From a virus (taxonomy: Duplodnaviria; Heunggongvirae; Uroviricota; Caudoviricetes), in the IMG/VR virus record IMGVR_UViG_2663762908_000006: a stretch of DNA of 18,765 bases, one strand, 5' to 3'. Made by a program: the position numbers and the translations under genes. Under the pieces are notes generated by a model that saw nothing but the letters and a program-made list of their open reading frames with translations, was not told the DNA's origin and did not search any database. Below are positions 1 to 18,765 of this stretch, piece by piece; positions within the stretch are counted from its first letter, which is position 1, and each line of letters begins with the position of its first letter.

Positions 1-216
1 ATGAAATCCATGGACAAGTTAACAACGGGCATTGCCTACGGCACCTCCGCAGGCAGTGCTGGCTACTGGTTTTTACAGTGGCTTGATCAGGTCAGTCCAT
101 CACAGTGGGCTGCTATTGGTGTGCTGGGAAGTCTGGTTCTGGGCTTTCTGACTTACCTGACGAATCTGTACTTCAAAATAAGAGAAGACAAGCGTAAAGC
201 TGCGCGGGGAGAGTAA
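1..216 (+). CDS. Class II holin (pinholin), S21 family, 71 aa, with dual-start motif
   Basis: Translation [71 protein letters not shown] closely matches my recollection of phage 21 S21 and the K-12 EssQ/EssD holins. Two short TM segments; Met1 and Met4 (MKSM) give the classic antiholin/holin dual start. Sits directly upstream of the SAR endolysin. Confidence 0.85.
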
Positions 217-220
217 TTCA

Positions 221-742
221 ATGACTCAAAACTATGAACTGATTGTGAAAGGGATCCGCAATTTTGAGAATAAAGTTACGGTAACTTTAGCGTTACGGGA
301 CAAAAACCGCTTTGACGGTGAAATTTTTGACCTGGACATCTCGCTGGACCGTGTTGAAGGTGCCGCGCTGGAGTTTTATGAGGCAGCAGCCAGAAGGAGC
401 ATCAGACAGGTCTTCCTGGATGTTGCTGCCGGGTTATGTGAAGGGGATGAGCTGTCGCCGGAAAAGCGCCCCATAATTTTAGAGGCGCAGAATGTGTGGA
501 TAACCTACAAAGGAAAGCTACCGGGAAGAATTACTGGTTCTCTGAAGACGCCACCGACGGCATTGCGGTCAGAAAAAGATGATATTGAATCGCCCATTGA
601 AAAACTGGAGGGCAGCGTCGCTGATCTGAATAAAAAATTGTCGGTGCTGATTCCTTCTGAAGATGAAAAAAAACGCCGCGATGAGCAGTTTGCGGCGTTT
701 TACGATTATTGCATTGAAGTTACTCTCGCAGGAATTTTGTGA
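221..742 (+). CDS. Hypothetical protein inserted between holin and endolysin (position of YdfR/DUF1327 in Qin-like prophages; homology not verified)
   Basis: 173-aa ORF starting 5 nt after the holin stop, with a GGGGAGAG Shine-Dalgarno-like stretch about 10 nt upstream. Composition is protein-like over its full length, including the part overlapped by the antisense ORF. No motif I can assign. Confidence 0.5.
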   Translation: MTQNYELIVKGIRNFENKVTVTLALRDKNRFDGEIFDLDISLDRVEGAALEFYEAAARRSIRQVFLDVAAGLCEGDELSPEKRPIILEAQNVWITYKGKLPGRITGSLKTPPTALRSEKDDIESPIEKLEGSVADLNKKLSVLIPSEDEKKRRDEQFAAFYDYCIEVTLAGIL

Positions 743-982
743 AGATTTTTGAGGAGGGTAAATCTCTTCAGTAAGCTTAATGGCGGACGCTGCAATTAAT
801 TCAGGAAGGTCCGCAAGGTCATCTGTCAGTGGATATGATGAAAAATCGGCGGCAGTTCTGTTAAGAAGCGCTTTAACTAATTCCTTTTCCTTCTCCGGCA
901 ACAAGTTGATTAGAGCTACGACTGCTTGCCTGAGTGCGATTAAATCAGCAAAAGTTTGTTTAGGTAGATTTGTGTAATCCAT
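569..982 (-). CDS. Hypothetical antisense ORF; N-terminal ~80 aa look protein-like, C-terminal ~58 aa overlap the 221-742 gene and look non-coding (possible gene remnant)
   Basis: ATG at 982 is preceded by AGAGG about 7 nt upstream on the - strand. The first ~80 residues (MDYTNLPKQTFADLIALRQAVVALINLLPEKEKELVKALL...) are helical and protein-like. The frame stays open to 569, but that part (…KRRKLLIAAFFFIFRRNQ…FNIIFF) is low-complexity. The region looks AT-rich by eye compared with the flanks. Confidence 0.3.
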   Translation of the reverse strand: MDYTNLPKQTFADLIALRQAVVALINLLPEKEKELVKALLNRTAADFSSYPLTDDLADLPELIAASAIKLTEEIYPPQKSSQNSCESNFNAIIVKRRKLLIAAFFFIFRRNQHRQFFIQISDAALQFFNGRFNIIFF

Positions 983-1095
983 AGTCGCCTCTGTGTTTAT
1001 CAGATTGACATCCTCCTCCCGCCAGTGCCCATCACTGGTGAGGTAAGATTTAACATATCCGGGGATTTGAAGCCGATAAATCCTGATAAATATCC

Positions 1096-2383: not shown

Positions 2384-2486
2384 TTTATTATTTGTACCTC
2401 TTGAGATTTCCTTGTTGGTTTTTCTCTCTGATATTTTTTTTCGGACCATTCTGCCCAAGGGCTAACTTCTTCAAAAGGTAATAATG

Positions 2487-2699
2487 ATGTCTAACAAAAT
2501 GACTGGTTTAGTGAAATGGTTTAACCCTGAAAAAGGTTTTGGTTTCATCACGCCGAAAGATGGTAGCAAAGATGTGTTTGTCCATTTCTCAGCTATTCAG
2601 AGCAACGATTTCAAAACGTTAACTGAGAATCAGGAAGTCGAATTTGGTATTGAGAACGGACCTAAAGGCCCCGCGGCTGTTCATGTTGTGGCACTTTGA
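2487..2699 (+). CDS. cspI: Cold-shock protein, CspA family (CspI-like)
   Basis: 70 aa from the second Met: [38 protein letters not shown]... carrying RNP1 (KGFGFI) and RNP2 (VFVHF) motifs. Matches my recollection of Qin-prophage CspI. Confidence 0.9.
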
Positions 2700-2898
2700 G
2701 GTAGAAAATATTACAAACCATATTCACTTTAGATGCCCGTGTTGCCATGGTTCTCAGTATAGAACATCATCTTTTGATGTTTCTGACAGGAATCCTTTCG
2801 GGGCAAAATGTATCTTTTGTAAATCAATGATGATTACATTTGATAATATTTCACAATACTTAAATGTTAGCCGTCTATCGTTAGATTTAAGAAAGTGA
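2683..2898 (+). CDS. Small Cys-rich (zinc-ribbon-like) protein, start uncertain
   Basis: ORF overlapping the csp 3' end, with motif C-P-C-C-H-G ... C-I-F-C ([34 protein letters not shown]). Ends 6 nt before a strong intrinsic terminator, so it is probably co-transcribed with the csp gene. No clear SD for ATG 2683; the true start may be non-canonical. May correspond to a known small Qin-prophage protein but I cannot verify. Confidence 0.4.
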
Positions 2899-2903
2899 AA
2901 ATG

Positions 2904-2928
2904 AAGGCTCCTTCGGGAGCTTTTTTGC
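2904..2928 (+). terminator. Rho-independent terminator
   Basis: AAGGCTCC-TTCG-GGAGCTT stem-loop (GC-rich stem, TTCG tetraloop) followed by TTTTTT at 2921-2926. Confidence 0.6.
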
Positions 2929-3046
2929 TTAGTGTCTAGTCGATGGATACTCACATATTACGGTAACATTATGAAAAAAAATAATAGTTTTTTTTAACTC
3001 TGAACCAGCAATGGTAGTGCCAGTGATGACCGGAGTTAACACCATC

Positions 3047-3202
3047 ATGCGTGAATATCCAAATGGCGAAACAACACACCTCACTGTAATGGCTGCAGGG
3101 TTTCCATCTCTGACCGGAGATCATAAAGTCATTTATGTAGCAGCGGATCGACATGTAACTTCAGAAGAAATTCTGGAAGCAGCAATGAGACTCTTGAATT
3201 GA
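3047..3202 (+). CDS. ynfN: Small protein, YnfN-like (51 aa from this start; start uncertain, ORF opens at 3011)
   Basis: ORF 3011-3202. A 51-aa product from Met 3047 (MREYPNGETTHLTVMAAGFPSLTGDHKVIYVAADRHVTSEEILEAAMRLLN) matches the size and position of YnfN between cspI and gnsB in Qin. Assignment is by synteny and recollection only. Confidence 0.5.
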   Translation: MREYPNGETTHLTVMAAGFPSLTGDHKVIYVAADRHVTSEEILEAAMRLLN

Positions 3203-3374
3203 TTTGATTCTAATGCATTGATAATAAATGATAATCATCTTTATCTGTTTGTGTGAAATTTAGACCGTCGTATGTTGATTATTGCGATGTTTCATCTTAT
3301 CTTTTATACGTTTGCTCCATATAATTGACACTACTGTGTACCAGGAAAGTCATAACAGACTAAAAGAGGAAATG

Positions 3375-3548
3375 ATGAACATTGAAGAGTTAAAAACAAA
3401 AACAGAAGCAGATATTTCTGAATATATAACAAAAAAAATCATTGAGCTTAAGAAAAAGACCGGGAAAGAAGTTACCAGTATCCAGTTTACTGCACGGGAA
3501 AAAATGACTGGTCTTGAAAGCTATGATATCAAGATTGATTTAATCTAG
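3375..3548 (+). CDS. gnsB: GnsA/GnsB-family small protein
   Basis: 57 aa: MNIEELKTKTEADISEYITKKIIELKKKTGKEVTSIQFTAREKMTGLESYDIKIDLI, closely resembling K-12 GnsB as I recall it. GAGGA SD at 3366-3370. The Qin-like cspI - ynfN - gnsB order is conserved. Confidence 0.8.
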   Translation: MNIEELKTKTEADISEYITKKIIELKKKTGKEVTSIQFTAREKMTGLESYDIKIDLI

Positions 3549-7455: not shown

Positions 7456-8963
7456 TGGCAATTCTTGATGATGTGATTGGCGTTTTTTCACCAGGATGGA
7501 AAGCGGCAAGGCTGCGTTCCCGTGCGGTGATCCAGGCTTATGAGGCCGTAAAAACGACGCGGACACACAAAGCCCGACGGGAGAACCGAACTGCCGACCA
7601 GTTAAGCCAGTACGGGGCCGTGTCGTTACGTGAGCAGGCCCGTTACCTTGATAACAACCACGATCTGGTTATTGGTGTATTTGACAAGCTGGAAGAACGG
7701 GTGGTGGGGAAAAACGGGATTATTGTCGAGCCACATCCGGTATTACGCAATGGGGCCATTGCCCGTGACCTGGCTGCGGAGATTCGCACCCGATGGAGTG
7801 AATGGTCTGTCAGCCCGGAAGTCACCGGGCAGTTTACCCGTCCGATGCTGGAACGTCTGATGCTTCGTACCTGGCTGCGCGATGGTGAGGTGTTTGCCCA
7901 GATGGTTTCCGGGCGCATAAACAGCCTGACGCCTTCTGCCGGTGTTCATTTCTGGCTGGAGGCGCTCGAGCCGGACTTTATTCCCATGACCAGTGATGAG
8001 AGCAACAGGCTGAATCAGGGCGTGTTTGTTGATGACTGGGGGCGTCCCGAAAAATATCTGGTGTATAAAAGCCGTCCCGTATCCGGACGGCAGATGGAAA
8101 CCAAAGAAGTGGATGCAGAGCGAATGCTGCATCTTAAATTTGTTCGCCGTCTGCACCAGATGCGCGGGACGTCTTTATTGTCCGGTGTGCTGATCCGCCT
8201 CAGTGCTCTGAAAGAGTATGAAGATTCTGAGCTGACTGCAGCAAGGATCGCCGCTGCTCTGGGGATGTACATCCGGAAAGGCGACGGGCAGAGCTATGAA
8301 GCGGATGGTAATGGCAGCAAGGATAAGGAACGCGAGCTTACCATTCAGCCAGGCATTATTTACGATGATCTGAAACCCGGCGAAGAAATCGGAATGGTGA
8401 AGTCGGATCGCCCCAATCCTAACCTTGAAACTTTTCGTAATGGTCAGTTGCGTGCCGTGGCGGCGGGCAGTCGTCTGAGTTTTTCCAGTACAGCGCGCAA
8501 CTATAACGGCACTTACAGCGCCCAGCGTCAGGAGCTGGTTGAATCCACTGATGGCTACCTGATCCTGCAGGACTGGTTTATTGGTGCCGTCACCCGTCCG
8601 ATGTATCGTGCCTGGCTGAAACAGGCTGTGGCATCCGGTGTTATCAGGCTACCCCGCGATCTTGACCGTTCTTCACTGTATACCGCGGTGTATTCCGGAC
8701 CGGTGATGCCGTGGATTGACCCTGTTAAGGAGGCTGAGGCCTGGAAAATCCAGATTCGTGGTGGAGCGGCGACAGAATCAGACTGGGTACGTGCTGGTGG
8801 TCGTAATCCGGATGATGTCAAACGTCGGCGCAAGGCCGAAATTGATGAAAACCGCAAGCTGGATCTGGTATTTGATACCGATCCGGCCAGTGATAAAGGA
8901 GGCAGCAGTGCCGCAACGAAACGACATGAGCCGCAGCACACCGACGACCAGTCCGAAGAATAA
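7455..8963 (+). CDS. B: Portal protein (lambda gpB family)
   Basis: 502 aa, ATG overlapping the gpW stop (TGATG). Size and position between W and the protease/capsid gene match the lambda portal. Confidence 0.85.
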   Translation: MAILDDVIGVFSPGWKAARLRSRAVIQAYEAVKTTRTHKARRENRTADQLSQYGAVSLREQARYLDNNHDLVIGVFDKLEERVVGKNGIIVEPHPVLRNGAIARDLAAEIRTRWSEWSVSPEVTGQFTRPMLERLMLRTWLRDGEVFAQMVSGRINSLTPSAGVHFWLEALEPDFIPMTSDESNRLNQGVFVDDWGRPEKYLVYKSRPVSGRQMETKEVDAERMLHLKFVRRLHQMRGTSLLSGVLIRLSALKEYEDSELTAARIAAALGMYIRKGDGQSYEADGNGSKDKERELTIQPGIIYDDLKPGEEIGMVKSDRPNPNLETFRNGQLRAVAAGSRLSFSSTARNYNGTYSAQRQELVESTDGYLILQDWFIGAVTRPMYRAWLKQAVASGVIRLPRDLDRSSLYTAVYSGPVMPWIDPVKEAEAWKIQIRGGAATESDWVRAGGRNPDDVKRRRKAEIDENRKLDLVFDTDPASDKGGSSAATKRHEPQHTDDQSEE

Positions 8964-13400: not shown

Positions 13401-13413
13401 GCAGGTGGAGAAC

Positions 13414-13803
13414 ATGATGTTTCTGAAACAGGGCACGTTTAATTATGAAAAGCAGTCCGTGGTGCTCAGTGAGCTGTCCGGGCTGCAGAGAATTGAATAT
13501 CTGGCGTTTGTTCAGCAGCGAACGGCAAAGTTTGATGCCGAAGAGGGAGAACTGCCGGAGGCTGAACGACAGATTGCTTTTCTGCGGATGGGGATGGATA
13601 TCAATGCCTGGCTGGTTTCCCGCTCACTGTGGAATGCGGAACAGTCTCAGGATGTTGAGACGCTTTGCGCATCCGTTATTACAACATGGTCGTATGATGC
13701 CCTGGGAGCGGGGGCGGAGATGGTTCTGTCGCTGAGCGGTATGGGAGCCATTGAGAATGCCGGGGATTTGGAGCATGAGGTGCTGACGCCGGAAAAGTCC
13801 TGA
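13414..13803 (+). CDS. G: Tail assembly chaperone gpG
   Basis: Similar to lambda gpG (MFLK..., V-LSELS-LQRIE-LA). GGTGGAG SD. Followed by a -1-frame ORF as in the lambda G/T pair. Confidence 0.85.
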   Translation: MMFLKQGTFNYEKQSVVLSELSGLQRIEYLAFVQQRTAKFDAEEGELPEAERQIAFLRMGMDINAWLVSRSLWNAEQSQDVETLCASVITTWSYDALGAGAEMVLSLSGMGAIENAGDLEHEVLTPEKS

Positions 13804-14141
13804 CGCGGGAAATGCAGTTTGTCATGCGGCTTGCCCGGGAGTTCAGGCGGGCAGACTGGCGGCGGATGCTGTCGGAAATGTCGGCCACTGAGCTTGGTGA
13901 GTGGGGCGATTATTTCCGGATGCAGAGCTTCAGTGATGTGTGGATGGATGCGCAGTTTGCCTCGCTGAAGGCATTGATCGTGAGAATGGTGTCCGGCAGC
14001 AGTGATGCTGCGGTGGCTGATTTCAGCCTTTTACCGGAAGAGAACGGGATACCGGAGCGAACGGACGAAGAACTGATGCATCTTGGGGAAGGTATTTCCG
14101 GAGGTGTGCGTTATGGACCAGATAGCCAACCTGGTCATTGA
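13791..14141 (+). CDS. T: gpT segment of the G-T tail assembly chaperone, reached by a programmed -1 frameshift from G
   Basis: The -1 frame relative to G is open from 13779 to the stop at 14141 and overlaps the last codons of G. Candidate slip site GGAAAAG at 13791-13797 (zero-frame GAA AAG). Conserved G/T arrangement of long-tailed phages. Confidence 0.6.
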   Translation, partial: GKVLTREMQFVMRLAREFRRADWRRMLSEMSATELGEWGDYFRMQSFSDVWMDAQFASLKALIVRMVSGSSDAAVADFSLLPEENGIPERTDEELMHLGEGISGGVRYGPDSQPGH

Positions 14142-17100
14142 TTTGGGGATTGATGCGGCAGAGTTTAAAAATGAAATTCCCCGTATCAAAAACCTTCTGA
14201 ATGGTGCAGCCAGCGATGCAGAACGGTCTTCTGCCCGTATGCAGCGTTTTATGGAGCGTCAGACTCAGGCCGCCCGGCAGACAACGCAGGCGGCGTCTTC
14301 GGCTGCAACAGCCGCATCCGTCCATGCGCAGACGGTGGAGAAGAACGCACAGGCTCATGAACGCATGGCCCGCGAGGTGGAGAAAACCCGCCAGCGTATG
14401 GAGGCACTGAGCCAGAAAATGCGCGAGGAACAGGCGCAGGCCATGGCTCTGGCGGAGGCTCAGGATAAAGCAGCTGCTGCGTTTTATCGTCAGATTGACA
14501 GTGTGAAACAGGCCAGTGCGGGGCTGCAGGAATTACAGCGTATTCAGCAGCAGATCCGACAGGCCAGAAACAGTGGCGGGATTGGTCAGCAGGATTATCT
14601 GGCGCTGATTTCTGAGGTTACGGCGAAAACCCGTGTTCTTACGCAGGCTGAGGAAGAGGCTACCCGACAGAAAGTGGCGTTTATCCGTCAGCTTAAAGAG
14701 CAGGCAACCCGCCAGAATCTTTCTTCTTCTGAGTTGCTTCGTGCTAAGGCTGCCCAGCTGGGGGTAAGCAGTGCTGCAGAAGTGTATATCCGCAAAATGG
14801 AGCAGGCAGGAAAAGCCACGCATTCGCTGGGTCTGAAAAGTGCAGCGGCCCGCCAGGAGATAGGCGTTCTGATAGGTGAACTGGCCCGCGGCAATTTAGG
14901 GGCGCTGAGGGGATCCGGGATAACGCTGGCTAACCGTGCCGGATGGATAGACACTCTGATGTCACCGAAAGGCATGATGCTTGGCGGGGTTATTGGCGGT
15001 ATTGCCGCGTCCGTCTATGGTCTGGGTAAAGCCTGGTATGACGGTCAGAAGGAGGGGGAAGAATTTAACCGCCAGTTGTCGCTGACGGGGCATTATGCCG
15101 GAGTCACTGCCGGGCAGCTGTGGACGCTCAGTCGTGCTATTTCCGGGAATGGTATCACGCAACATGCTGCAGCCGGTGTGCTGGCTCAGGTGGTGGGGAG
15201 TGGTGCATTTCGTGGAAACGATATCGGTATGGTGGCGAGAGCTGCCGCACAGATGGAGCGATCGGTTGGCCAGTCGGTCAGCGATACCATAAATCAGTTT
15301 AAGCGGCTGAAGGATGATCCTGTAAATGCCGCGAAGGCTCTGGACAATGAGCTGCATTTTCTTACTGCCACTCAGCTTGAGCAGATACGTGTCCTTGGGG
15401 ATCAGGGACGGTCCAGTGATGCTGCACGGATAGCCATGTCTGCACTGGCAGAGGAAACCGGTCGGCGTACTGCGGATATTGATAATAACCTCAATGCGCT
15501 TGGCAGTACGCTGAAGTATCTGTCTGATTTATGGAGTCGTTTCTGGGATGCGGCCATGAATATTGGTCGTGAAGACTCGCTGGATGAACAGATTGCCGCT
15601 TTACAGGAGAAAGTGTCGCGGGCGAAAAGACTCCCCTGGACGGCATCATCTTCTCAGGTTGAATACGATCAGCAGCGTCTTAACGATCTTCAGGAGAAAA
15701 AACGCCAGAAGGATTTGCAGGATGCAAAAGAGCAGGCAGAGCGGAATTATCAGGAGCAACAGAAACGACGTAATGCTGAAAATGCTGCACTGAACCGGAT
15801 GAATGAAACGGAAGCAGCACGACATCAGCGTGAAATTGCGCGTATTAATGCCATGCAGTACGCCGATCAGGCTGTCAGGGATGCAGCGATACAACGTGAA
15901 AATGAACGTTACGAGAAAGCCCTGGCATCCGGTAAGAAAAAAACACGCGAAACCCGTAATGATGAGGCCACCCGGTTATTGCTGCAGTACAGTCAGCAAC
16001 AGGCACAGGTGGAAGGACAGATTGCTGCTGCAAGACAGTCAGCAGGCATTGCCACTGAAAAGATGACAGAAGCGCATAAACAGCTTCTGGCTCTGCAGCA
16101 GCGCATCAGCGATCTGGACGGGAAAAAACTGACGGCAGATGAAAAGAGTGTGCTGGCCCGTAAAGATGAACTGATTCAGGCACTGACGCTGCTGGATGTA
16201 AAACAGCAGGAGCTTCAGAAACAGACGGCACTCAACGATCTGAAGAAAAAAACAATTCAGCTGACCAGTCAACTGGCTGAAGAAGAGCTCGCTCAGCGTC
16301 AGCAACATGACCTGGATATCGCCACGGTGGGTATGGGTGATCAGCAGCGGCAGCGATATCAGGTACAACTGAGTCTTCGCCAGAAATACCAGCAACAGCT
16401 GGAGCAGTTGAGGCGGGATAGTGAGCAGAAAGGGACATATAACACGGATGACTACAGAAAGGCCGAGCAGGCGCTGACGGAGAGCCTGAACCGACAACTG
16501 AATGAGAATCGCCGTTACTGGCAACAGCTTGAAGTTGTGCAGGGTAACTGGAAAAACGGAGTCCTGCGTGCATTTCAGGATTTTACCGTGGATGCAGACA
16601 ATACGGCAGGAACAGCAGAACAGGTGTTCTCGTCAGCCTTCAGCAACATGGGAAATGGCCTGGCAACTTTTGTCACTACCGGCAAACTCAACTTCAAATC
16701 CTTCACCTCTTCGGTGCTGTCAGATATGGCGAAAATCCTGGCGCAGGCAACCATGATGAAATCGATAAAAGGGATTGGCAGTGTACTGGGATTTGATCTC
16801 AGCAGCCTTTCCCTGAATGCCAATGGGGGGATTTATCAGTCTGCTGATTTGAGTCGTTACAGTGGCACGGTGGTTAACCGTCCGACGTTTTTTGCTTTTG
16901 CAAAAGGCGCGGGTGTGATGGGGGAAGCGGGACCTGAAGCCATTCTGCCACTGCGTCGTGGTGCTGACGGTAAGCTGGGGGTTGTGGCGGATATTGGTGG
17001 TTCAGGTATGGCGATGTTTGCCCCGCAGTACAACATCGAGATCAATAACGATGGCACGAACGGGCAGATAGGTCCGGCTGCCCTGAAGGTGGTTTATGAC

Positions 17101-17178
17101 CTTGGGAAAAAAGCGGCAGCGGACTTTATGCAACAGCAGGCCCGTGATGGTGGTCGGTTAAGTGGAGCATATCGGTAA
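14113..17178 (+). CDS. H: Tail tape measure protein gpH
   Basis: 1021 aa with GGAGGTG SD 6 nt upstream of ATG 14113 (the ORF opens at 14083 with TTG). Long Gln/Ala/Glu-rich coiled-coil central region; Gly-rich hydrophobic segments near the C-terminal third. Position between G/T and M. Confidence 0.9.
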   Translation: MDQIANLVIDLGIDAAEFKNEIPRIKNLLNGAASDAERSSARMQRFMERQTQAARQTTQAASSAATAASVHAQTVEKNAQAHERMAREVEKTRQRMEALSQKMREEQAQAMALAEAQDKAAAAFYRQIDSVKQASAGLQELQRIQQQIRQARNSGGIGQQDYLALISEVTAKTRVLTQAEEEATRQKVAFIRQLKEQATRQNLSSSELLRAKAAQLGVSSAAEVYIRKMEQAGKATHSLGLKSAAARQEIGVLIGELARGNLGALRGSGITLANRAGWIDTLMSPKGMMLGGVIGGIAASVYGLGKAWYDGQKEGEEFNRQLSLTGHYAGVTAGQLWTLSRAISGNGITQHAAAGVLAQVVGSGAFRGNDIGMVARAAAQMERSVGQSVSDTINQFKRLKDDPVNAAKALDNELHFLTATQLEQIRVLGDQGRSSDAARIAMSALAEETGRRTADIDNNLNALGSTLKYLSDLWSRFWDAAMNIGREDSLDEQIAALQEKVSRAKRLPWTASSSQVEYDQQRLNDLQEKKRQKDLQDAKEQAERNYQEQQKRRNAENAALNRMNETEAARHQREIARINAMQYADQAVRDAAIQRENERYEKALASGKKKTRETRNDEATRLLLQYSQQQAQVEGQIAAARQSAGIATEKMTEAHKQLLALQQRISDLDGKKLTADEKSVLARKDELIQALTLLDVKQQELQKQTALNDLKKKTIQLTSQLAEEELAQRQQHDLDIATVGMGDQQRQRYQVQLSLRQKYQQQLEQLRRDSEQKGTYNTDDYRKAEQALTESLNRQLNENRRYWQQLEVVQGNWKNGVLRAFQDFTVDADNTAGTAEQVFSSAFSNMGNGLATFVTTGKLNFKSFTSSVLSDMAKILAQATMMKSIKGIGSVLGFDLSSLSLNANGGIYQSADLSRYSGTVVNRPTFFAFAKGAGVMGEAGPEAILPLRRGADGKLGVVADIGGSGMAMFAPQYNIEINNDGTNGQIGPAALKVVYDLGKKAAADFMQQQARDGGRLSGAYR

Positions 17179-17507
17179 TGGAGACGTTTCACTGGAAAGT
17201 GCGCCCGGATATGAATGTGGTATCAGAGCCGAAAGTGGTGACAGTGAAGCTGGGCGATGGTTATGAACAGCGTCGTGCGGCGGGACTGAATAACCAGTTG
17301 TCGACTTACAGCGTGACGATACGTGTTCGTAAATGTGAACACCCATCTTTAAAAGCCTTTCTGGAACGGCACGGTGGCGTCCGCGCATTTCAGTGGACGC
17401 CACCTTATGACTGGAAGCCGATCAGGGTGGTTTGTCGTAAATGGTCGGCAAGCGTGGGGGCGTTGTGGGTAACCATAACGGCAGATTTTGAACAGGTCGT
17501 GGCATAG
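17178..17507 (+). CDS. M: Minor tail protein gpM
   Basis: 109 aa, the same length as lambda gpM and clearly similar (F-WKV-P-M-V-S-P-V--V--GDGY-QR-AGLN--L-TYSVT, HGG---F-WTPPY-W--I-V-C-KWS, EFEQVV). Start overlaps the H stop (TAATG). Confidence 0.9.
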   Translation: METFHWKVRPDMNVVSEPKVVTVKLGDGYEQRRAAGLNNQLSTYSVTIRVRKCEHPSLKAFLERHGGVRAFQWTPPYDWKPIRVVCRKWSASVGALWVTITADFEQVVA

Positions 17508-17516
17508 GAGTCTCTG

Positions 17517-17882
17517 ATGCAGGATATTCCACAGGAAACACATCATGAGACGACACGCCTCACTCAGTCAGCCCAGGTGGTGCTCTGGGAAATCGATCTG
17601 ACAGTGGTCGGTGGAGAACGTTATTTTTTCTGTAATGAGCAGAACGAAAAAGGTGAGCCGATCACCTGGCAGGGGCGACAGTATCAGGCGTATCCCATTC
17701 AGGGGACGGGATTTGAACTGAACGGCAAGGGCAGTGCTGCCCGTCCGACACTGACGGTTTCTAACCTGCACGGCATGGTCACCGCGATGGCGGAAGACCT
17801 GCAGAGTCTGGTCGGAGGAACGGTGGTCCGGCGTAAGGTTTACGCCCGTTTTCTGGATGCGGTGAACTTCGTCAACGGAAAC
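17517..17882 (+). CDS. L: Minor tail protein gpL, 3'-truncated by the assembly gap
   Basis: AGGAG SD. The first 122 aa are highly similar to lambda gpL (MQDI-QET..., SVVLWEIDLT-VGGERYFFCNEQNEKGEP-TWQGRQYQ-YPIQG-GFELNGKG---RPTLTVSNL-GMVT-MAED-QSLVGGTVVRRKVYARFLDAVNFVNGN). The ORF runs into the N run at 17883. Confidence 0.85.
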
Positions 17883-17892
17883 NNNNNNNNNN
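17883..17892. other. Assembly gap (run of 10 N)
   Basis: Ten consecutive n characters. Phage sequence (gpL) on one side, chromosomal dnaQ-downstream sequence on the other. Confidence 0.95.
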
Positions 17893-17920
17893 GCGTTGTG
17901 TTCCGTTGGGAACGAGGCGA

Positions 17921-17949
17921 ATATTACGGATTGCCTCGACCTTCGTCAA
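17921..17949 (-). promoter_or_regulatory. Sigma70 promoter-like element on the - strand (TTGACG-17 nt-TAATAT, GC-rich discriminator), likely a tRNA promoter whose gene falls in or beyond the gap
   Basis: The - strand reads TTGACG (17944-17949), a 17-nt spacer, TAATAT (17921-17926), then the GC-rich TCGCCTCG. In E. coli a tRNA-Asp gene (aspV) lies just downstream of dnaQ, but no tRNA sequence is present between 17893 and 17920. Confidence 0.4.
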
Positions 17950-18024
17950 CGGTTTTTCTCATCTTTTGAATCGTTTGCTGCAAAAATCGCCCAAGTCGCT
18001 ATTTTTAGCGCCTTTTACAGGTAT

Positions 18025-18756
18025 TTATGCCCGCCAGAGGCAGCTTCCGCCCTTCTTCTGCACCAGATCAAGACGGGCTTCATGTGCTGCAAGCTCGTCA
18101 TCTGTCGCAAAAACAACGCGTAACTTACTTGCCTGACGTACAATGCGCTGAATTGTTGCTTCACCTTGTTGCTGTTGTGTCTCTCCTTCCATCGCAAAAG
18201 CCATCGACGTTTGACCACCGGTCATCGCCAGATAAACTTCCGCAAGGATCTGGGCATCGAGTAATGCCCCGTGTAGCGTTCGTTTACTGTTATCTATTTC
18301 GTAGCGGGCACATAACGCATCGAGGCTGTTGCGCTTACCAGGAAACATTTTCCTCGCCACCGCAAGGCTATCGGTGACCTTACAGAAGGTATTGGTCTTC
18401 GGAATATCGCGCTTAAGCAACGAAAACTCGTAGTCCATAAAGCCGATATCGAACGCTGCGTTATGGATCACCAACTCCGCGCCGCGGATATAGTCCATGA
18501 ACTCATCGGCTACTTCGGCAAACGTGGGCTTATCGAGCAAAAATTCATCGGCAATACCATGTACGCCAAAGGCTTCCGGATCCACCAGCCGATCGGGTTT
18601 GAGATAAACATGGAAGTTATTGCCCGTCAGGCGACGGTTCACCACTTCAACGGCACCAATCTCAATGATCTTGTGGCCTTCATAGTGCGCACCAATCTGG
18701 TTCATACCGGTGGTTTCGGTATCGAGAACGATCTGGCGTGTAATTGCAGTGCTCAT
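18025..18756 (-). CDS. dnaQ: DNA polymerase III epsilon subunit (3'-5' proofreading exonuclease)
   Basis: The translation matches E. coli DnaQ as I recall it from MSTAITRQIVLDTETTGMNQ... to ...KKGGSCLWRA, 243 aa, with the DEDDh exonuclease motifs. An in-frame ATG also sits at 18763-18765 at the window edge. Confidence 0.95.
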   Translation of the reverse strand: MSTAITRQIVLDTETTGMNQIGAHYEGHKIIEIGAVEVVNRRLTGNNFHVYLKPDRLVDPEAFGVHGIADEFLLDKPTFAEVADEFMDYIRGAELVIHNAAFDIGFMDYEFSLLKRDIPKTNTFCKVTDSLAVARKMFPGKRNSLDALCARYEIDNSKRTLHGALLDAQILAEVYLAMTGGQTSMAFAMEGETQQQQGEATIQRIVRQASKLRVVFATDDELAAHEARLDLVQKKGGSCLWRA

Positions 18757-18765
18757 AGCGGTCAT

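Follow-up and report, generated by a model that had tools for sequence, protein, structure and literature searches.

The presence of dnaQ, the gene for the epsilon subunit of DNA polymerase III, directly beside a lambdoid prophage raises the question of whether the two are true neighbours in an E. coli chromosome, or whether they were brought together when the sequence was assembled. The window, meaning here the whole stretch of 18,765 nucleotides that was analysed, carries phage genes on one side of a run of 10 Ns and dnaQ on the other, and this run is the only one within it. The same sequence, with 0 mismatches and the same 10 Ns, is part of NCBI record JRRP01000037.1 (assembly GCA_001413455.1), an E. 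coli short-read draft scaffold of 3,221,730 bp that is heavily scaffolded, and from which loci L136 and L139, discussed below, are also taken. The features that surround the gap are collected in Table 1.

Table 1. Features at and near the N run, numbered from the first letter of the window.
Feature	Position	Strand	Basis or remark
Tail tape-measure gene, 1021 aa	14113-17178	+	Translation; the exact protein served as sibling probe
gpM-like minor tail protein gene	17178-17507	+	Pfam Phage_min_tail, E=1e-39
Minor tail protein L gene (gpL), 5' fragment, codons 1-122 of 232	17517-17882	+	Pfam
Spurious chimeric ORF, 150 aa	17517-17969	+	Gene called across Ns
66-nt phage-contig overhang (k-1) into a gpL segment presumably shared with a second prophage	17817-17882	+	
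12-mer CTTCGTCAACGG, copy 1, gpL codons N-F-V-N-G	17867-17878	+	
Scaffold gap, 10 N	17883-17892		Also in public record
dnaQ-aspV intergenic spacer, 132 nt, with presumed aspV promoter and leader	17893-18024	-	Closed genomes
Sigma-70-type promoter-like site, TTGACG-17 nt-TAATAT	17921-17949	-	Consensus scan, 9/12 matches
12-mer CTTCGTCAACGG, copy 2, reverse complement of aspV -35 region (CCGTTGACGAAG)	17941-17952	+	
dnaQ (DNA polymerase III epsilon subunit), complete	18025-18756	-	Pfam RNase_T; identity to annotated dnaQ

Up to position 17882, the window corresponds to the late region of a lambdoid prophage, with genes for a holin, a lysozyme, an Rz-like protein, cold-shock and Gns cargo, terminase, portal, a protease-capsid fusion, and tail proteins. 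A first-pass annotation of the sequence had described gpL as being cut by the N run after residue 122, and the reading frame that opens at 17517 does encode 122 residues before the Ns; residues 29-122 of the truncated product align to positions 1-94 of the 206 positions of Pfam profile Phage_tail_L (PF05100), with E=1.4e-44. The genes that the same annotation reported as missing, namely K, I, J and those of the tail fibres, are all absent from the window, and a full-length gpL followed by K, I and J is likewise not found there, only 122 of its 232 codons being present, while one sibling assembly described below (L135) carries the complete series. A 28-mer of gpL is found in at least 120 other phage contigs of IMG/VR, and in the 120 related phage contigs gpL runs on past the motif GGAAAC with AGTGACGCCGATCCGGAGCAGG or a close variant, so that the cut is placed at an ordinary position within the gene. 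When the IMG/VR viral contigs were scanned for the junction with an N spacer, and for a 43-mer of the aspV promoter, 0 hits were obtained with either, so that the source is not among them. The chimeric reading frame listed in Table 1 consists of gpL residues 1-122, X residues, and read-through of the aspV promoter region, and as a called gene it occurs in exactly one contig of the public collection, JRRP01000037.1 itself. The junction displays none of the hallmarks of a tRNA-integrated prophage that were looked for, since it has neither a tRNA nor an att-like sequence, and its phage side stops in mid-gene at the Ns. ARAGORN detects no tRNA anywhere in the window, and neither an integrase gene nor a tRNA 3'-end repeat is present in it, the prophage left arm being excluded from the window; this arm, integrase included, is located outside, behind further N gaps.

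The prophage resembles the Qin remnant of K-12, of which it seems to be an intact relative, and several of its features are worth recording in their own right. Between the lysis genes and terminase lies a cargo segment (2484-3548) that encodes a CspI-like cold-shock protein (2484-2699), a small YmcF-like protein, and a toxin of the GnsA/GnsB family. A DUF1327 gene (221-742, + strand) encodes 173 aa, as opposed to 103 aa in the prophage of strain STEC005, which is otherwise collinear but offers no match to window positions 421-1085; within the collection, the exact DUF1327 protein is confined to 3 contigs, each belonging to the sibling series, and an antisense ORF of 137 aa (569-982) overlaps the gene. 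This region could reflect either mosaicism or the insertion of a short segment. Just upstream of the holin gene lies a fragment of IS1 InsA. Within gpL, two rare alleles were detected: C at 17785, a position at which 117 of the 118 related phages have G, and A at 17816, which only 7 of the 118 possess; both could mark this phage lineage for tracing. Lastly, of the 120 IMG/VR loci that contain the gpL 28-mer (L003-L122), 9 stop no more than approximately 100 nt downstream of this gpL break and several others stop within 200 nt upstream of it, these locus ends being perhaps not true contig ends; draft assemblies of E. coli may tend to break repeatedly in this part of gpL.

The sequence to the right of the gap is of a very different, well-conserved nature. 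Of 5426 complete E. coli genomes, 5425 contain a single copy of positions 17893-18765, and in many of them it is 100% identical. In the closed genome CP025851, the 5' end of a 77-nt tRNA-Asp(GTC) directly adjoins the equivalent of 17893, and the distance between the end of dnaQ and this tRNA gene is 132 nt, as in the spacer of the window; the tRNA-Asp is adjacent in the same manner in three other genomes identified through matches to a promoter 43-mer in genome contigs, closed or draft. The consensus-like promoter that the first-pass annotation had seen on the - strand, pointing into the gap and followed by dnaQ, is readily located, with TTGACG at 17949-17944, a 17-nt spacer, TAATAT at 17926-17921, and a G+C-rich discriminator, TCGCCTCG; as read from the sequence, it precedes the 5' end of the mature tRNA by approximately 29 nt. 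Both this site and the 132-nt spacer are the same as in closed genomes, and the tRNA itself is absent from the window. The TTGACG-17-TAATAT element is presumably the aspV promoter, judging from its consensus match and its position. That annotation had also remarked upon a tRNA-type promoter devoid of a gene, and the gene that this orphan promoter would serve is aspV, since in closed genomes tRNA-Asp follows at once and the distance to dnaQ is the same; the mature tRNA-Asp would start at the first base inside the gap. Complete genomes carry a median of 3 copies of the tRNA-Asp gene, and the best copy is at least 99% identical in 5428 of 5429 records. Being multicopy, this gene constitutes a short exact repeat, and the dnaQ contig ends precisely at its edge. 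In the one closed genome examined, the DNA next to aspV is a type VI secretion island; aspV is among the tDNA insertion hotspots most used by mobile elements and islands in E. coli (PMC7545054). A literature search for aspV together with dnaQ returned no papers. It can also be recorded that two complete genomes titled 'Enterobacter hormaechei', CP170191.1 and CP169086.1 (L123 and L125), contain the exact 43-mer of the E. coli dnaQ-aspV spacer with the tRNA adjacent, and that these species labels may be wrong.

Key evidence regarding the origin of the junction is provided by related assemblies. The exact 1021-aa tape-measure protein was employed as a probe, 24 contigs being read and 10 places listed, and the siblings among the listed matches belong to accession series GCA_0014129xx-0014138xx. 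In 9 of these 10 listed siblings the same prophage is present with 0 mismatches up to the break, and gpL is cut by an N run, of 10 Ns in eight cases and of 567 Ns in one, at one of two gpL positions. Beyond the N run, the nine siblings lead to nine different core loci, namely the yncG/ansP/yncE region, purU-ychJ, pflA-pflB-focA, an acrB fragment followed by tomB-hha, the nlpD-pcm-surE region, mhp-lacI-lacZ, kdsA-prmC-prfA, the ybbA region, and a family-4 glycosidase/PTS locus. The tenth (L135; JRRI01000005.1) has a contiguous gpL of 232 aa, followed by K, I, J, lom and a tail fibre gene. The siblings may represent the same clone, as their identical 13.7-kb prophage suggests. Since one gpL end cannot adjoin ten core loci, that of dnaQ included, at the same nucleotide, these joins are best understood as scaffolding artefacts. 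The possibility that a transposable phage could account for the differing partners was rejected, given that the phage is lambdoid and that the break occurs in mid-gene at Ns. In sibling L129, positions 13405-16269 encode a 954-aa gpL-AcrB fusion that covers positions 201-1021 of the ACR_tran profile.

The manner in which the sibling contigs end gives additional indications as to the process at work. Where the phage contig stands to the right of the gap, as it does in five reversed sibling records, it is cut in all five at the equivalent of 17816; where it stands to the left, as in four of four siblings and in the window, it extends 60, 62, 64, 64 or 66 nt further. These overhangs equal k-1 for k values of 61, 63, 65, 65 and 67, all of them odd, the 66 nt of the window corresponding to k=67. 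Velvet retains a k-1 overhang before a gap and writes gaps with a minimum of 10 N, and the assemblies discussed here are presumably Velvet-style output of a de Bruijn graph; we infer that the program involved was a de Bruijn-graph scaffold writer. In the literature searched, no paper citing the WGS accessions was found, nor anything relevant on Velvet 10-N gaps.

The question of why unique sequence should end at 17816 can be addressed by comparison with the 118 related phages, a sample composed of the hits of the 28-mer scan, for which the ungapped identity profile is degraded by indels outside gpL and is qualitative only. Position 17816 is polymorphic among them, with A (the window allele) in 7 and C in 108, and the 68 nt that follow are nearly invariant, with the exception of 17829. 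Among complete genomes, the kilobase that follows the break occurs at 14,782 places (median 3 per genome), with 4336 genomes showing at least 80% coverage, while the kilobase that precedes it occurs at 8,397 places (median 2 per genome), with 1777 genomes at that coverage; the segment after the break is thus both more widespread and more repeated than the one before. These observations suggest that unique sequence ends at 17816, and that the tail module from 17817 onwards is shared with a co-resident lambdoid prophage; if the latter carried the common allele, 17816/17817 would be the transition from unique to shared sequence. The same overhang rule explains the dnaQ contig: it is written after the gap, and its first base coincides with the edge of aspV. 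The evidence therefore supports the involvement of both repeats, one per contig end: the 5' boundary of aspV for the dnaQ contig, and the shared gpL segment for the phage contig. The suggestion of the first-pass annotation that the scaffold had been joined through a repeated element, with tRNA-Asp and lambdoid tail genes as plausible causes, is borne out on both counts by contigs that end at the edge of aspV and at 17817.

Taken as a whole, the evidence indicates, with a probability of roughly 0.93, that the gpL-dnaQ junction, where two contigs that are each bounded by a repeat come together, is an error of scaffolding and does not correspond to a genuine feature of the genome. The 10 Ns would be a minimum-length scaffold gap written between contigs that do not belong together. 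The left contig would consist of the late region of a Qin-like lambdoid prophage, ending where the sequence stops being unique and carrying the usual k-1 overhang (66 nt, k=67) into the tail-tip repeat formed by gpL, K, I and J. The right contig would be the 8-kb dkgB...dnaQ segment between aspU and aspV, which are two of three identical tRNA-Asp genes; by starting exactly at the aspV boundary, it would leave aspV lost in the gap and its promoter without a gene. The error of the scaffolder would then have been to connect these two ends, each bounded by a repeat. In the actual chromosome, gpL would continue past GGAAAC with AGTGACGCCGATCC into K, I, J, lom and the tail-fibre genes, and the dnaQ spacer would continue into aspV and then into whatever island follows it. 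The missing tail genes exist in the identical phage of sibling L135 and not in JRRP01000037.1, and the true right end of the prophage is, by analogy with its close relatives, probably at the Qin/ydfJ site.

The adjacency itself can be confronted with closed genomes. A search for places where the gpL and dnaQ pieces occur together, with a joining distance of approximately 1.5 kb, identified none among 5426 complete E. coli genomes. The first-pass annotation had considered the adjacency of prophage and dnaQ as not established; the siblings, L135 and the complete genomes go further and positively contradict it, and it is almost certainly false. The same scaffold contains further 10-N gaps. A second 10-N join (L136, 18368-18377), located approximately 8 kb to the right of the window gap, links dkgB and 65 nt of aspU, tail-to-tail, to a flank that lies approximately 200 nt downstream of rrfE, the 5S gene of rrnE (yjaB-metA-aceB). 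Both sides of this join are flanks that lie downstream of rrn operons, and they face each other, an arrangement that, we infer, recombination between directly oriented rrn operons cannot yield; the link between dkgB-aspU and the yjaB side was found in 0 of 5426 complete genomes. A third 10-N gap (L139, 6132-6141), approximately 3.65 kb to the left of window position 1, separates a DUF2767 gene from the prophage lipocalin/YbgA cargo genes. In sibling GCA_001413415.1 (L138, 9833-9842), a run of 10 Ns connects the end of an IS1 element to the holin gene, at what corresponds to window positions 53-62, with the icd-phoPQ region on the other side. The second and third gaps and the IS1-holin join indicate that 10-N joins in this assembly series are generally unreliable, and the 10-N breaks of the series fall at IS1, tRNA-Asp, rrn, and shared prophage genes.

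A number of other explanations for the junction can be envisaged. One is that the prophage truly resides at or beside aspV, and that the Ns conceal approximately 13-15 kb or more, made up of the remainder of gpL together with K, I, J, lom, the tail-fibre genes, attR and aspV. Scaffolders can assign a minimum-length gap to a distance that is not known, the orientation is geometrically possible, with the tRNA 3' end facing the tail end of the phage, and aspV is a much-used tDNA insertion hotspot (PMC7545054). Nevertheless, in nine sibling scaffolds this contig end is attached to nine other places in the chromosome, the prophage most closely related to it among closed genomes terminates at pinQ-ydfK-ydfJ, none of the 5426 closed genomes has a lambdoid gpL within approximately 1.5 kb of dnaQ, a type VI secretion island comes after aspV in the closed genome that was inspected, and another 10-N join of the same scaffold is seen in no closed genome; an extensive hidden gap must thus be regarded as very unlikely. 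Were it real, aspV would be a lambda-type attachment site with the tail end, rather than the integrase, beside the tRNA, which would be an unusual orientation. The adjacency could also be true with a short gap, if a prophage remnant deleted from gpL codon 122 onwards abutted aspV and only the tRNA of approximately 77 nt were missing. Such an arrangement would suit the mere 10 N that were written, as well as a dnaQ contig that stops exactly at the tRNA boundary, where a short missing piece would be enough; but an overhang of 60-66 nt that varies with k past a fixed position, 17816, is the signature of a repeat and not of a deletion endpoint, the identical prophage of L135 possesses a full tail module, and the join exists in no closed genome, all of which make a deleted remnant extremely unlikely.

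There is virtually no likelihood that the Ns are a mask placed by a data provider over real, contiguous sequence, for instance in order to hide a tRNA. One of the sequence collections used is said to have a few masked stretches that read as N, but the same 10 Ns reached us through the NCBI record by an independent route, 10 nt are too few to cover a 77-nt tRNA, and identical 10-N runs in the same scaffold and in sibling scaffolds link unrelated loci.

A final candidate cause is the 12-mer CTTCGTCAACGG, which, as the first-pass annotation had pointed out, is present on both sides of the gap, and which it viewed as either a chance occurrence or a feature that had misled the scaffolder. The window contains exactly two copies, while none are expected in shuffled sequence, and among 3480 pseudo-junctions cut inside the window none share 12 nt or more and 27 share 11 nt; identity of this length at a random junction is thus rare, and could evoke either microhomology for a real recombination event or a scaffolder or gap-closer that was led astray. 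Both copies, however, are native to their own contexts, the first being part of the gpL 28-mer found in at least 120 other phage contigs, and the second forming part of the spacer that separates dnaQ from aspV in closed genomes, 48 nt in from the edge of its contig. Had an overlap produced the join, the two copies would have become one, and would not both remain in place with Ns in between. In addition, the nine siblings with the same gpL break have partners that share only 6-9 nt with the gpL end and carry no 12-mer within 1 kb. Since the break thus arises in siblings whose partners share so little, the scaffolder was not misled by the 12-mer; the part of the earlier proposal that invoked chance stands, and the part that invoked a misled scaffolder does not. 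The 12-mer is best treated as a coincidence, though a rarer one than chance usually gives, and a causal role for it, by either route, is close to inconceivable.

The false scaffold join has no biological meaning, and its consequences are solely practical. Taken at face value, the record would suggest that a prophage cut short lies at the aspV hotspot and that a promoter there lacks a gene, both of which derive from the writing of the scaffold. Read-through chimeras such as the 150-aa gpL product and the 954-aa gpL-AcrB product are now part of public protein collections, and joins of this type would mislead predictors of prophage boundaries and integration sites. The geometry described above provides a quick test for false joins that requires nothing but the sequence: a left contig that runs k-1 nt into a repeat, and a right contig that begins exactly at a repeat boundary.

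Comparison with known systems places each side of the gap in a recognizable context. The right side is the dnaQ-aspV locus as it exists in closed E. coli genomes such as CP025851 and ATCC 8739, to which window positions 17893-18765 are 100% identical, with the same 132-nt spacer and promoter-like site, and with the same dnaQ-rnhA-yafS-gloB-mltD order continuing to the right; the difference is that in the window the 77-nt tRNA-Asp and everything downstream of it are replaced by 10 Ns and an unrelated phage contig. The left side is collinear, from holin through gpL, with a Qin-like prophage located at the ydfJ site of STEC005 (NZ_CP041437, 2.31-2.34 Mb), the two being 98.9% identical across the structural genes (13.7 kb) and 84-92% identical in the lysis and cargo region. 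The two prophages share the same cargo, with a cspI-like cold-shock gene, a YmcF-like gene and a GnsB-type toxin. The STEC005 prophage is in turn collinear with that of L135 (98.9%) through K, I, J, lom and the tail fibre, and its tail-fibre end abuts pinQ-ydfK-ydfJ and not dnaQ; in contrast, the window stops at gpL codon 122, which is an assembly break, and its DUF1327 region (approximately 421-1085) has no STEC005 counterpart. The gap itself has the appearance of de Bruijn-graph scaffolds, the window and its series having in common gaps of exactly 10 N, a k-1 overhang on the left, and a right contig that starts at a repeat boundary. Finally, foreign DNA beside dnaQ-aspV is also characteristic of bona fide aspV islands, such as PAI-CFT073-aspV and the type VI secretion islands, which make use of the same hotspot (PMC7545054), and it is because aspV is a recognised site of island insertion that the false junction looks plausible. 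Real aspV islands, however, start after an intact aspV, whereas in the window aspV is missing and its place is taken by DNA from the middle of a tail gene.
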